Notes under the pieces: model-generated
What the model was told of the DNA's origin: nothing
Database searches by the model: none
What the model saw: only the letters and a program-made list of their open reading frames with translations
In this document: positions 34,505-37,837 of the stretch, piece by piece
Layout of the letters: every line of letters starts with the position of its first letter
How positions within the stretch are numbered: the stretch's first letter is position 1
Position numbers and translations under genes: made by a program
Source of the DNA: Candidatus Falkowbacteria bacterium
GTDB taxonomy: Bacteria > Patescibacteriota > Patescibacteriia > Patescibacteriales > UBA12465
Length of the DNA: 44,817 nt
Reading direction: 5' to 3'
Assembly: GCA_016432645.1 (NCBI GenBank)
Contig: CP066698.1
Location: forward strand, 86,245-131,061

Positions 34505-34532
34505 TTGACATACTGACCAGATTTGATATCAT
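34505..34532 (+). promoter_or_regulatory. Sigma70 promoter for pre-tRNA-Asn
   Basis: TTGACA (34505-34510), 16-nt spacer, TG-n-TATCAT (34527-34532), about 90 nt upstream of the tRNA. Confidence 0.65.
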
Positions 34533-34672
34533 ATTAGTAAATATTTCTGGTTGAAATATTTTGTTTTTGTAGGAGCGGATTAATATTTTTATATTGAATC
34601 CGTGAGCCACAATTTAATATTCCCGGGTAGCGCAGCGGTAGCGCAGTTGGCTGTGAACACATTTTTATTTTT

Positions 34673-34681
34673 TGCTATAAT
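34673..34681 (+). promoter_or_regulatory. Intron-internal extended -10 element, putative leaderless promoter of the HNH ORF
   Basis: TG-C-TATAAT ends at 34681, with exactly 6 nt before ATG 34688. No recognisable -35. Confidence 0.5.
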
Positions 34682-34687
34682 ATTATT

Positions 34688-34996
34688 ATGACAAAAGATA
34701 AAAGAAAATATGCCGATCGTGCCGAATATTTAAAGGCAGCGGTTGATAGGAGGCGAAAGCAAGTCCGTCAATTAGCCATTGAATATAAGGGCGGTGAATG
34801 TTCCATTTGCGGTTATAGCAAGTGTTTTAAAGCGCTTGAATTTCATCATCTTGATTCTTCTAAGAAAGACTTTGGCATCTCTGCCAAAGGATATACTAGA
34901 AGTTGGGAGGTGATAAAAAAAGAGCTCGATAAATGCATCTTGGTATGCGCAAATTGTCATCGTGAAATTCACGAAGGTATCACGCAGCCCCTTTGA
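34688..34996 (+). CDS. Intron-encoded HNH endonuclease, zinc-finger type; putative homing endonuclease
   Basis: 102 aa with CSICGY..C..ALEFHH...CILVCANCHREIH. Lies wholly inside the intron, between the 5' splice site and the IGS. Confidence 0.88.
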   Translation: MTKDKRKYADRAEYLKAAVDRRRKQVRQLAIEYKGGECSICGYSKCFKALEFHHLDSSKKDFGISAKGYTRSWEVIKKELDKCILVCANCHREIHEGITQPL

Positions 34997-35275
34997 GTAA
35001 TCAAAGGGTGAAAACGAGGTGAACTGTCTGGAAGCCTAAGTCGCAAGATATGGTAATCAGCAGCCAAGCCCTGACTTGTCAGGGAAGGTTCAGAGACTAT
35101 CCCGAAAGGGAGTAGGCCCGTCAAGGAGACGGCCCGAAGCGCCTCGCATCCGTAATTTGCGGATGATGATATAGTCCACTCCACTCAGAAATTAGTGGGT
35201 AAGTGTAACCAATTGGTCGTCGGTTCGAATCCGACCCCGGGAGCAAAGCGATCCGTTTCGGATCAACTCTTATAG

Positions 35276-35309
35276 AAAAACAAACGAGATTGCTCTCGTT
35301 TGTTTTTTT
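35276..35309 (+). terminator. Intrinsic terminator of the pre-tRNA
   Basis: Perfect 14-bp inverted repeat AAAAACAAACGAGA-TTGC-TCTCGTTTGTTTTT followed by further Ts. Confidence 0.75.
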
Positions 35310-35331
35310 ATTAACTATATTAAATAAATTT

Positions 35332-36168
35332 ATGCCAGTCCCTACATATGATGAAATGTATAATCCATTACTTAAAGCAATGCGCGCTTTGGGTGGTTCT
35401 AGTTCAAATTCAGAATTAGATGATAAAGTCGCTGAAATCTTGGGGTTATCAGAGGAGGAAATAAATGCAATTCACGTTGGCAACAGAACGCGATTAAGTT
35501 ACAGAATGGCTTGGGCAAGAAATTATCTAAAAAGATATGGTCTTTTGGAAAATTCAGCGAGAGGTGTCTGGGCACTAACTTTAAAAGGTAAGAAAACGGA
35601 CACGGTTGATAAAATTGAGGTAAATAAATATGTAAAAGGATTAGATAAAAAATTAGAAACTGTCGAGGAAAAAGTTGAAGAAGGAAAAGTGCTGGGTGAT
35701 GAAGAAGTGCTATGGCAAGATGAACTTATAGAGGAATTATTAAAAATGGATCCATCTGCGTTTGAAAGATTATGCCAGAGAATGCTTAGGGAAAGTGGAT
35801 TTATTCAAGTAGAGGTTACTGGAAGATCTGGAGATGGAGGAATAGATGGTAATGGCATTTTAAAAGTAAATGGGTTTATAAGTTTTTTTGTTACTTTTCA
35901 ATGCAAACGATATAAGGGAAGTGTTCCGCCTAAAGAGATTAGAGATTTTAGAGGCGCTTCAATTGGAAGGTCGGAAAAGGGTTTATTTATTACAACAGGA
36001 ACGTTTACTCGTGACGCGAAAGCAGAGGCCGTGAGAGAAGGGGCTCCAAGAATAGATTTAGTTGATGGAGAGATGTTAGCTGAAAAATTAAAAGAATTAA
36101 GGCTTGGCATTGATGTTGAGATGGAAGAAGCAGTGACGATTGATAAAAAGTGGTTTGAAAATTTTTAA
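35332..36168 (+). CDS. mrr: Mrr family type IV restriction endonuclease
   Basis: Mrr N-terminal winged helix (PTYDEMYNPLL..WARNYLKRYGLLE..RGVWALT). Catalytic domain FERLC..GDGGIDG..QCKRY..GLFITTGTF. ATG 35332, because TTG 35290 lies inside the terminator. Confidence 0.92.
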   Translation: MPVPTYDEMYNPLLKAMRALGGSSSNSELDDKVAEILGLSEEEINAIHVGNRTRLSYRMAWARNYLKRYGLLENSARGVWALTLKGKKTDTVDKIEVNKYVKGLDKKLETVEEKVEEGKVLGDEEVLWQDELIEELLKMDPSAFERLCQRMLRESGFIQVEVTGRSGDGGIDGNGILKVNGFISFFVTFQCKRYKGSVPPKEIRDFRGASIGRSEKGLFITTGTFTRDAKAEAVREGAPRIDLVDGEMLAEKLKELRLGIDVEMEEAVTIDKKWFENF

Positions 36169-36178
36169 TAGATAAGAT

Positions 36179-37837
36179 ATGACAAAATCTAAAAATGAAA
36201 ATTTCTCTTTTGAGATTTCTTTAAGTGTGTTAGACCATTTAGGAAGAAATCTTTATAGAAGTTTTGTTACCGTGTTAGGTGAAGCTATTTCAAATTCTTG
36301 GGATGCAGATGCTCGCAATGTTAGAATTTATATTGATAAATCTAAAAATAGCTTTGTTATTATTGATGACGGAGATGGAATGACAAGTGACGATTTTCAA
36401 AATAAATTTTTAAGAATTGGTTATTCAAAAAGAAAAAATGGTAGTTCAATGTCAAAAAATCAGCGCCCATTTATAGGAAGAAAAGGTATCGGGAAACTGG
36501 CCCTGCTTTCTTGTGCAGATGAAATAACAATAGCTTCTAAAGTAAAAGGTGGAAGTTATGTAGGGGGCGTAATAAATAATAAAGGACTTGATAAAGCAAT
36601 CACAGATGACAGGGCGCCACAGGAATATGAGCTTGGTGTTTTAGATGTTGTTAAATTGAAAAAATTTACAAATAAACATAAAAAGGGAACAGTTTTATAT
36701 TTTAAAGGATTAAAAGATGAAATAAAAAATAACATTGATTATTTAAAAAAGATTGTTGCATTATATTTTCGTTTTTCTTTACTTGATAGTACGTTTAATA
36801 TATTCATAAATGATGAAAAAATAACTTATAAACATCTAAATGATTTATCTAAAAAAACAGAATTTTTATGGGAAACAGATGGAAATAAAGACCCTTTTGT
36901 ACGACAAGGGTTAAAATTTTTAAAAGAAGAGAAAAGAATAAAAATCGGAAGTGGAATTAATGGTTTTATTGCATCAGTGGATAAACCAAGAGATTTAAAT
37001 GTGTTATCAACTGGTGAGCGTGTTAGTATTGATTTATTTGTTAATGGAAGGCTAAGAGAAAAAGACATATTAAAACATATTCCTACGGCACGTATAGCAG
37101 AGAGTTATCTTTATGGCCAAATTCATTTTGATAACTTGGATGATAATGACAAAGATAGATTTACAAGCAGTCGAGAGAATGTTGTAGCGGATGATCCAAA
37201 ATATAAGGAATTTTTAGTAGAGTTCAAAAAAACAATTGAGGGGGTTATTAAAGACTGGGACACTTGGAGGATAAAAAACAGAAAAGATGGTAATCCAGAA
37301 AATGAAGATATTTTAAAACGTGATAGAAAATCTTTAGAATTGTACAATGTTGTATCCGGAGAATATATTCCGCCAAAGGGTTCGGCTAAGAAAAGTTTAA
37401 TAGATGAGTGGGTTGATAGTTTAGCTAATGATGCAAAATATAATTTTTCTTCATATGCAGAGTGCTTTATATCCGAAAATCTTATTAGGAAGTACATTGG
37501 AAATAAAAAAATAAAAATGACTGAAGAAGCAGAAAGGGAAATAAAAAAATGGAAAGATATTGAAAAACAGAATAAAGGGGCCGGCAATATAAGTATTAAA
37601 ATTAGAAATAGTGAAACTGGGTTAGGTTATTTATCAATGACAGATTTATCTGCTTTAGTAGATAAAAAGGGAAGAGATAAGCTTAAAGAAGCCTCGCTTT
37701 TTAGAGATGCGACAGAGTATAAGCCAATAAGAGATGCGTTGGCGCATACGGCATTATTAACTGATGCGGCTAAAAGCAAATTGACATCCGTTTATAACAA
37801 CATTAAAGAAAGAGTCAATGTGTTAATTTCAAAATAA
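36179..37837 (+). CDS. GHKL (MORC/MutL-like) ATPase with putative C-terminal HEPN domain
   Basis: E35-x3-N39 (EAISNSWDAD), DDGDGM, GRKGIGK. S5-like region LFVNGRL/SYLYGQIHFD. C-terminal ENLIRKYI..YLSMTDL..R518-DALA-H523. Confidence 0.8.
   Translation: MTKSKNENFSFEISLSVLDHLGRNLYRSFVTVLGEAISNSWDADARNVRIYIDKSKNSFVIIDDGDGMTSDDFQNKFLRIGYSKRKNGSSMSKNQRPFIGRKGIGKLALLSCADEITIASKVKGGSYVGGVINNKGLDKAITDDRAPQEYELGVLDVVKLKKFTNKHKKGTVLYFKGLKDEIKNNIDYLKKIVALYFRFSLLDSTFNIFINDEKITYKHLNDLSKKTEFLWETDGNKDPFVRQGLKFLKEEKRIKIGSGINGFIASVDKPRDLNVLSTGERVSIDLFVNGRLREKDILKHIPTARIAESYLYGQIHFDNLDDNDKDRFTSSRENVVADDPKYKEFLVEFKKTIEGVIKDWDTWRIKNRKDGNPENEDILKRDRKSLELYNVVSGEYIPPKGSAKKSLIDEWVDSLANDAKYNFSSYAECFISENLIRKYIGNKKIKMTEEAEREIKKWKDIEKQNKGAGNISIKIRNSETGLGYLSMTDLSALVDKKGRDKLKEASLFRDATEYKPIRDALAHTALLTDAAKSKLTSVYNNIKERVNVLISK

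Follow-up and report, generated by a model that had tools for sequence, protein, structure and literature searches.

A tRNA-Asn gene of a Candidatus Falkowbacteria bacterium, very probably split by a phage-like group I intron with an HNH gene in its P1 loop

The DNA analysed here (the window) is a 44,817-nt stretch, C1:86245-131061, of the 977-kb single-contig genome of a Candidatus Falkowbacteria bacterium that is 95% complete; the best DNA match to the locus is a groundwater metagenome. We found two tRNA halves in it, 34621-34654 (34 nt) and 35206-35243 (38 nt), with 551 nt between them, and joining the halves gives a 73-nt tRNA-Asn(GUU) with a regular cloverleaf, which ARAGORN calls tRNA-Asn(gtt) on the joined sequence. 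The features of the locus are as follows.

34505..34532, + strand: promoter-like site for the pre-tRNA (TTGACA, 16 nt, TATCAT, with TG before the -10), from a consensus scan with 11/12 matches
34621..34654, + strand: tRNA-Asn 5' exon, positions 1-35, 3' end GGCUGU, last base U35 (ARAGORN; identity to intronless congener alleles)
34649..34655, + strand: 5' strand of P1, GGCUGU/G, with the 5' splice site after U34654 (direct reading)
34654..34681, + strand: intron-internal promoter-like site (TGAACA, 16 nt, TATAAT, extended -10), from a scan with 10/12 matches with TG
34655..35205, + strand: group I intron of 551 nt, from G34655 to the terminal G35205 (Rfam RF00028; boundaries from empty-site alleles)
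34688..34996, + strand: HNH endonuclease ORF of 102 aa in the P1 loop (ORF list, PHROG, invariant residues, AlphaFold model, dN/dS)
34983..34989, + strand: internal guide sequence, which is the P1 3' strand CGCAGCC (direct reading; alignment A1)
34990..35007, + strand: P2 hairpin of 7 bp with a GUAA loop and with the ORF stop TGA (34994-34996) in its 5' strand (7/7 pairs with compensatory changes)
35015..35198, + strand: catalytic core (12-helix structure, covariation count)
35206..35243, + strand: tRNA-Asn 3' exon, from U36 to the discriminator G73 (ARAGORN; intronless alleles)
35280..35310, + strand: terminator-like hairpin ACAAACGAGA-TTGC-TCTCGTTTGT followed by a T run (direct reading)

The 3' exon does not encode CCA. 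Judged by its consensus match, the site at 34505..34532 would act as the promoter of the pre-tRNA; the terminator-like hairpin at 35280..35310 was missing from the output of the signal scan and was found by direct reading.

Intronless alleles, taken from a DNA search of 60 relatives, fix the register of the split. Congeners contain at least 12 intronless tRNA-Asn genes with the sequence ...GCAGTTGGCTGTTAACCAATTGG..., which is exactly the predicted join. Since only the 35/36 register gives this sequence, the break lies between U35 and U36, and the identity of the alleles to the predicted join rules out chance. Both these alleles and the ARAGORN call on the joined halves bear out the first-pass annotation, which had proposed a tRNA-Asn(GUU) split between U35 and U36.

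The same annotation had read the insert as a group I intron from its U.G splice pair, terminal G, P3/P4/P7 core and R and S elements, and all of these hallmarks held. In the covariance-model search that it had proposed, Rfam Intron_gpI (RF00028) matched positions 34969-35198 over the full model (1-253) with 84.7 bits against a cut-off of 50 (E 2.8e-20), and this was the single match when the window was scanned with Rfam at gathering scores. The P, Q, R and S consensus stretches are visible in the Rfam alignment.

P1 forms between the end of the 5' exon and a guide sequence that was located by alignment, replacing an automatic longest-pairing search; that search had been misled by pairings within the ORF and with the P4/P6 sequence CAGCAGCC. 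We found that U34654 (U35) makes the U.G pair at the 5' splice site with G34984. The guide sequence is kept in at least 30 homologues, with ACGCAGC near-invariant in alignment A1 and the guide G invariant, and the terminal G35205 is invariant in 34 homologues. Two distant copies (L049 and L056) have A at intron position +1 together with U in the guide, which is a compensatory change (G-C to A-U) in P1. Direct reading of the aligned homologues found no conserved pairing for P10. Exon pairing in the anticodon stem may stand in for P10 here, by analogy with the Anabaena pre-tRNA-Leu intron, where such pairing is reported to replace P10.

The core downstream of P2 is made up of the following helices.

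35015-21/35140-46, + strand: P3
35024-30/35058-63, + strand: P4
35034-36/35052-54, + strand: P5
35040-42/35047-49, + strand: P5a
35064-65/35087-88, + strand: P6
35069-75/35078-84, + strand: P6a
35095-99/35172-76, + strand: P7, which forms a pseudoknot with P3
35100-35111, + strand: P7.1 (95% paired, 2 pairs with double changes)
35115-35135, + strand: P7.2 (8/8 pairs with double changes)
35147-52/35160-65, + strand: P8
35181-87/35192-98, + strand: P9, with a GAAA loop

Covariation was tested on 22 aligned cores (A1) with 12 helices, P2 to P9 including the P7 pseudoknot, drawn from the window sequence. We found that 93.9% of cells form standard pairs in this structure versus 28-45% with the partners slid by 1-3 columns, a control that is at some disadvantage because the structure was derived from one of the aligned sequences. 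The count of compensatory pairs is unaffected by this: changes on both sides occur in 44 of the 65 pairs versus an average of 22 in shuffles, and none of 500 shuffles reaches any of the observed pairing measures. P7 is invariant and hence uninformative for covariation.

The ORF in the P1 loop carries the motif C38xxC41...H53H54...C87xN89C90H91...H95. It matches PHROG 2255 'HNH endonuclease' at E 3e-30 and falls below the cut-off for the Pfam HNH model (PF01844; 18.9 vs 21.4 bits). Among 49 homologues C41, H53, H54, C87, N89, C90 and H91 are invariant, and C38 and H95 are kept in at least 90%. The AlphaFold (AF2) model (mean pLDDT 82.5) has a long basic N-terminal helix (5-33), then a small core with strands at 50-54 and 83-87 and a final helix at 88-96. 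The best PDB matches in a fold search are weak (E 0.04 or worse) and are all HNH nucleases (Cap5, Cas9 HNH domains, phage T5 SciA and the Gme nicking enzyme); a search of solved structures by sequence gave nothing significant for the 102-aa protein. The PHROG match, the invariant Cys, His and Asn residues and the HNH-type fold matches uphold the earlier call of an HNH endonuclease ORF in the intron. The gene is annotated 'hypothetical' or 'McrA-like'.

Relatives of the intron that have no ORF (225-258 nt) align base for base with its 3' 220 nt, and their P1 loops are short; in L011 the loop is only 6 nt (GGCUGUG-AAAUGA-CGCAGCU). Hence, the window ORF is an insertion in the P1 loop. Its final codons (...ATC ACG CAG CCC CTT TGA) double as the guide sequence and the P2 5' strand, and this overlap accounts for the conserved C-terminal 'TQ' of the protein.

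We found no Shine-Dalgarno sequence before the HNH ORF. Instead, the ATG is preceded at a distance of 6 nt by an extended -10, TGCTATAAT (34673-34681), for which the scan gives TGAACA (34654-34659) as partner. Most homologues that carry the ORF likewise have TGnTATAAT 6-8 nt upstream of the start codon, despite differing surrounding sequence. The HNH mRNA is probably leaderless and transcribed independently of the pre-tRNA.

The intron site is polymorphic for presence and absence within the genus, where three states (ORF-bearing, ORF-less and empty) were found among 36 other species genomes.

Intron with the HNH ORF: about 7 genomes, plus the genome studied here
ORF-less intron: 11 genomes
Intronless: 12 genomes
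Allele state undetermined: 6 genomes

The intronless alleles retain the identical target sequence. Some ORF-less copies hold remnants of the ORF (the ...REVHEG end in L015, the start and the end in L021), which would fit the pattern expected of the cycle of invasion, decay and loss that homing elements go through. A locus that had looked like a variant tRNA-Asn followed by half an intron (L022) contains a run of N and was set aside.

Beyond the genus, the HNH protein family comprises 3806 clusters at E ≤0.001. Among named genomes, at least 19 of the 36 loci found have the HNH gene at position 35/36 of tRNA-Asn, with hosts in Falkowbacteria, Magasanikbacteria, Moranbacteria, Berkelbacteria and Kaiserbacteria and in MAGs that carry the labels Omnitrophota, Nitrospiria and Elusimicrobiaceae. 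We then surveyed 400 evenly sampled genomes of the phylum (401 with our own) for the gene at a threshold of E 1e-15, and 43/400 genomes carry it, or 44/401 with our own (~11%); in 27 of the 29 phylum loci inspected it sits inside a split tRNA-Asn. The intron was surveyed with a covariance model (R1) of its last 70 nt plus the 3' exon, which at a threshold of 57.9 bits gave 68 matches in 66/401 genomes, our own included (~16%). As calibration, our own tRNA-Phe intron scores 50.2 bits and the matches at 64-66 bits are tRNA-Asn; the weaker matches that were opened are introns in tRNA-Tyr and tRNA-Leu. Intron and HNH gene occur together in ~36 of the ~65 intron-bearing genomes of the phylum sample. 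Hence, the ORF-bearing form is not the minority in this family, whereas the first-pass annotation had taken introns at 35/36 to be mostly without endonucleases.

The first-pass annotation had also inferred that the intron and its nuclease are a complete mobile unit. The three allele states in the genus, the 27/29 phylum loci and the selection on the ORF lend this indirect support: the dN/dS of the HNH ORF is 0.05-0.10 against eight homologues (three further pairs gave no ratio, their dS being saturated), and these ratios indicate that it is under strong purifying selection.

The main rival, which we consider unlikely, keeps a splicing ribozyme and mostly vertical inheritance but supposes that the HNH protein no longer homes and is kept for a role as a maturase or host nuclease. 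It would account for a conservation that is unusually strong for a selfish nuclease, seen both in these dN/dS values and in at least 70% identity across more than 100 clusters from several classes, and 102 aa leave little room for a long recognition surface. HNH identity also drops with taxonomic distance, as would be expected of a gene that is mainly inherited vertically and repeatedly lost, rather than of one that homes often. However, the distribution of the gene is patchy in the phylum: it was found in none of ~25 same-class genomes from other families, and more distant classes carry it. The genus has many functional-looking ORF-less introns whose cores are equally conserved, so the HNH protein is not needed for splicing, and the ORF-deletion remnants fit a homing cycle of gain, decay and loss. 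Moreover, free-standing copies of the gene adjoin tRNA-Asn genes, 27 nt upstream of an intronless one in L088 and just upstream of one with an ORF-less intron in L072. These points favour the reading of the HNH gene as a homing gene.

Default ARAGORN counts 44 intact tRNAs in the genome, among them Thr UGU, GGU and CGU; Asn, Phe and Trp are absent from this set. The genome scan found no second tRNA-Asn gene, which settles the earlier question of whether another exists: the split gene is the sole tRNA-Asn. Hence, splicing is required for the cell to decode Asn codons. As for the other two tRNAs absent from the default set, tRNA-Phe(GAA) is interrupted after U33 by a group I intron of 253 nt without an ORF, which is the genome's only other Rfam group I match, and a divergent tRNA-Trp emerges at a lowered threshold. 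ARAGORN at low threshold with introns gave only noise.

In two river metatranscriptomes the matching contigs are confined to the intron and ORF region of a close relative, and DNA carry-over is possible for them. No spliced junction in these two data sets could be attributed to this gene, the joint being indistinguishable from the tRNA of intronless relatives; 'joints' seen in DNA runs come from intronless relatives and are not spliced product.

A dead relic, in which the intron no longer splices and the tRNA-Asn is a pseudogene, would agree with the lack of spliced RNA attributable to this gene in the two metatranscriptomes and with two mismatches in the window copy, a C.U in P9 and a C.C in P7.2. 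We consider it very improbable, since a 95%-complete genome in one contig has no other tRNA-Asn, the Rfam score clears the cut-off by a wide margin, no core element is damaged, and the ORF is unbroken and shares 96-97% identity with the copies in two other species. The C.C position of P7.2 is unpaired in most homologues and hence is not a lesion of the window copy.

The first-pass annotation had expected standard finders to miss the split tRNA, and this was so for default ARAGORN, which reports zero tRNA genes in the whole window, and for the Rfam tRNA model, which finds nothing in the window at the gathering score. With its intron option (-i), ARAGORN calls the gene tRNA-Thr(tgt) i(33,551), in a register 2 nt upstream. 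Because an insert after U33 in a tRNA-Thr(UGU) likewise puts U before the intron and G at its end, we took this register as a serious rival, but we reject it as having next to no probability: the empty-site alleles read GGCTGTTAACC, which is obtainable from the 35/36 register only; U33 would stand opposite an A in the guide sequence, whereas U35 stands opposite the conserved G; a tRNA-Thr(UGU) is already present at C1:961070-961145, whereas tRNA-Asn is otherwise absent from the genome; and by the tRNA identity rules U1-A72 and G73 are Asn-like, not Thr-like.

The split gene is thus read as tRNA-Asn(GUU), and its intron resembles phage introns more than the classic tRNA set. P7.1 and P7.2, which lie between P7 and the P3 3' strand and which the first-pass annotation had named as typical of subgroup IA, are both backed by compensatory changes, although they are absent from some homologues at the same site (L048, L053 and L072). 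A blastn search with the core gave phage group I introns that interrupt protein genes as its closest annotated relatives, with 70-80% identity along 35-70% of the query; among the interrupted genes are thyX of Alteromonas phage AD45, RNAP2 of N4-like phages and the DNA polymerase of some Salmonella phages. The thyX gene of phage AD45 is split, and the stretch matched within it falls beneath the 3' end of a CDS that bears the annotation HNH endonuclease. The two helices together with the phage-intron similarity support an IA-type label and a separation from the classic IC3 tRNA introns.

Classic bacterial and plastid tRNA group I introns are those of Leu(UAA) in cyanobacteria and plastids, fMet in cyanobacteria, Ile(CAU) in Azoarcus and Arg(CCU) in Agrobacterium; they sit at 34/35 in tRNA-Leu and after U36 in the CAU and CCU tRNAs. 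The reference for this set is Reinhold-Hurek and Shub (1992). Our intron shares with it the group I type with predicted self-splicing, the anticodon loop of a bacterial tRNA gene as its place, a P1 built from anticodon-loop bases with a U.G splice-site pair and, in its ORF-less forms, the compact size (225-258 nt). It differs in its host, tRNA-Asn(GUU), in its site, 35/36, and in its phylum, Patescibacteria. IC3 members have a core without P7.1/P7.2 and reside in Leu(UAA), fMet, Ile(CAU) or Arg(CCU) tRNAs; here the core has both helices and is phage-like. By its sequence, then, the intron is placed outside the IC3 lineage, though it would work like IC3 tRNA introns. A structure paper is available for the Azoarcus tRNA-Ile(CAU) intron (PMC13168695). 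The literature searched gave no account of a Patescibacteria tRNA-Asn intron at 35/36; it offers just the general statement that group I introns occur in CPR tRNAs (PMC8172020).

Several systems combine such introns with nucleases. The tRNA-gene group I intron with an endonuclease gene has a counterpart in the tRNA-fMet intron of Synechocystis PCC 6803, whose homing endonuclease I-Ssp6803I, according to what is reported of Bonocora and Shub (2001), has demonstrated cleavage activity. The fMet enzyme targets the intronless anticodon region and is of the PD-(D/E)XK type, whereas the nuclease here is a zinc-finger HNH with predicted cleavage; the tRNA, the site and the intron subgroup differ as well. 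Phage group I introns with HNH genes (e.g. I-HmuI of SPO1) are similar in the ribozyme core, but they interrupt phage protein genes and not a chromosomal tRNA of a cellular organism, and the HNH proteins at phage loci are ~220 aa by their CDS coordinates versus 102 aa here. Intron ORFs of T4 have their own promoters, as is predicted here. The 'collaborative homing' of free-standing endonucleases with ORF-less introns, reportedly described by Zeng, Bonocora and Shub in 2009, recalls the two relatives with a free-standing HNH gene beside tRNA-Asn (L072 and L088); in contrast, the window ORF is inside the intron, and the free-standing cases are relatives known from their genes alone.

Taken together, the locus is very probably the sole tRNA-Asn(GUU) gene of the genome, split between U35 and U36 by a 551-nt self-splicing, phage-like (IA-type) intron with an HNH homing gene in its P1 loop; the self-splicing chemistry in vivo and the cleavage specificity of the HNH protein are predicted from sequence. 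Transcription of the pre-tRNA would start from the promoter ~90 nt upstream. The anticodon-loop bases G31-U35 would pair with the guide CGCAGC, with U35 opposite G34984, and an external guanosine bound in P7 would attack after U35. The terminal G35205 would then occupy the guanosine site, and exon ligation would yield a normal tRNA-Asn. From its own extended -10 promoter, the HNH gene would probably be transcribed from the A of its ATG into the leaderless mRNA. Homing would most likely begin with a cut by the enzyme near the anticodon of intronless tRNA-Asn genes, and the intron would be copied in during repair of the break. In its mechanism the element would be an ordinary case of a mobile group I intron that brings a homing endonuclease into a bacterial tRNA gene; it differs in the 35/36 site of tRNA-Asn, the phage-like core with P7.1/P7.2, the small HNH, the ORF in the P1 loop that runs over the guide, and the phylum.

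For the biology of tRNA introns, the bacterial self-splicing kind would no longer be limited to the classic IC3 members but would include a phage-like intron in tRNA-Asn, at the new site 35/36. One genus holds all stages of the homing cycle (empty, ORF-bearing, remnants and ORF-less), and relatives have free-standing HNH genes beside the target, which makes for a compact natural system in which to study how introns and endonucleases come together. In small genomes with one tRNA-Asn gene, an essential tRNA would rely on ribozyme activity. At the far end of what we consider plausible, and improbable as it stands, is a wider reading in which many Patescibacteria combine a ribozyme-dependent sole tRNA-Asn with a conserved HNH kept beyond selfish homing; if this were true, guanosine- and Mg2+-dependent splicing could couple Asn decoding to the nucleotide status of host-dependent cells or, alternatively, the HNH protein could aid splicing or police tRNA-Asn gene copies.

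The main practical weight of the finding falls on tRNA annotation in Patescibacteria. When finders miss or mislabel the gene, the genome seems to be without tRNA-Asn, as would about one in six of the sampled Patescibacteria species, and this apparent gap is open to misreading as genome incompleteness or odd biology.

The genome that holds the window carries a second split tRNA gene. We found that an ORF-less group I intron of 253 nt interrupts its single tRNA-Phe(GAA) gene (ARAGORN, default thresholds) after U33. Rfam scores this intron at 83.1 bits, and its P1 is GGACU/GGUCC, U.G pair included. ARAGORN recovered a tRNA-Trp(CCA) at a lowered threshold only; this tRNA is divergent, its D stem being weak and its T loop odd. 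Once this gene and the two intron-bearing tRNA genes are counted, the tRNA set of the genome serves all 20 amino acids.

C1:629841-630166, outside the window (locus L002): split tRNA-Phe(GAA), ARAGORN and Rfam
C1:382115-382186, minus strand: divergent tRNA-Trp(CCA), ARAGORN

Within the tRNA-Asn intron of the window, the P4/P6 sequence CAGCAGCC at 35058-35065 contains a second copy of the guide sequence GCAGCC of P1, so the 5' exon GGCUGU could pair there too, and a naive guide search selects this site. The resemblance is most likely coincidental and due to the conserved Q element.

Two protein genes follow the tRNA immediately downstream, and the G+C content of the window falls to 31-34% across 36-40 kb. 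The region looks like a defence island adjoining the tRNA gene.

Window 35333-37837: Mrr-type restriction endonuclease (Mrr_N and Mrr_cat) and a 552-aa GHKL-ATPase protein

Across the phylum, 144 of the 401 sampled genomes match the model of the intron-to-tRNA junction at E ≤0.001, the weak matches being candidates. With the intron mode of ARAGORN, tRNA-Tyr(GUA) and a tRNA called Leu(CAG) also proved to carry group I introns, some 190-210 nt long.

G252:C1:403500-404300 (L104), G078:C4 (L107) and G301:C18 (L105): tRNA genes with group I introns

Some tRNA-Asn loci of relatives are unusual. In one genome (L103, G076:C1:770080-771000), an intron-bearing and an intact intronless tRNA-Asn gene lie on the same strand with about 90 nt between them. 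At another locus, a tRNA-Asn 5' part with a differing anticodon stem (CAGAC) runs into a stretch of N, past which come an ORF-less intron and the 3' exon; the scaffold may have a gap here, or the locus may hold two copies of tRNA-Asn.

L022 (G021:C2), 1414-1769: tRNA-Asn 5' part and ORF-less intron

Homologues of the intron-encoded HNH endonuclease also stand free beside tRNA-Asn. One lies 27 nt upstream of an intronless gene (L088), and another just upstream of a gene holding a 210-nt ORF-less intron without P7.1/P7.2 (L072). These arrangements look like stages in the joining of the endonuclease with the intron.

L088 (G151), 1501-1892: free-standing HNH homologue and tRNA-Asn
L072 (G104), 1490-2095: free-standing HNH homologue and tRNA-Asn

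Further homologues (52-55% identity) occur in DPANN archaea, where a tRNA gene has an insert some 300 nt long that the HNH homologue occupies entirely, with no space left for a ribozyme. The 3' part of these inserts holds a hairpin with an Asn-like CUGUUAC loop. The insert is possibly a protein-spliced archaeal intron bearing the same nuclease family as the HNH of the window.

L059, L060 and L064 (Iainarchaeum-type MAGs), about 1450-1835 in L059 and L060: HNH homologues in an archaeal tRNA gene
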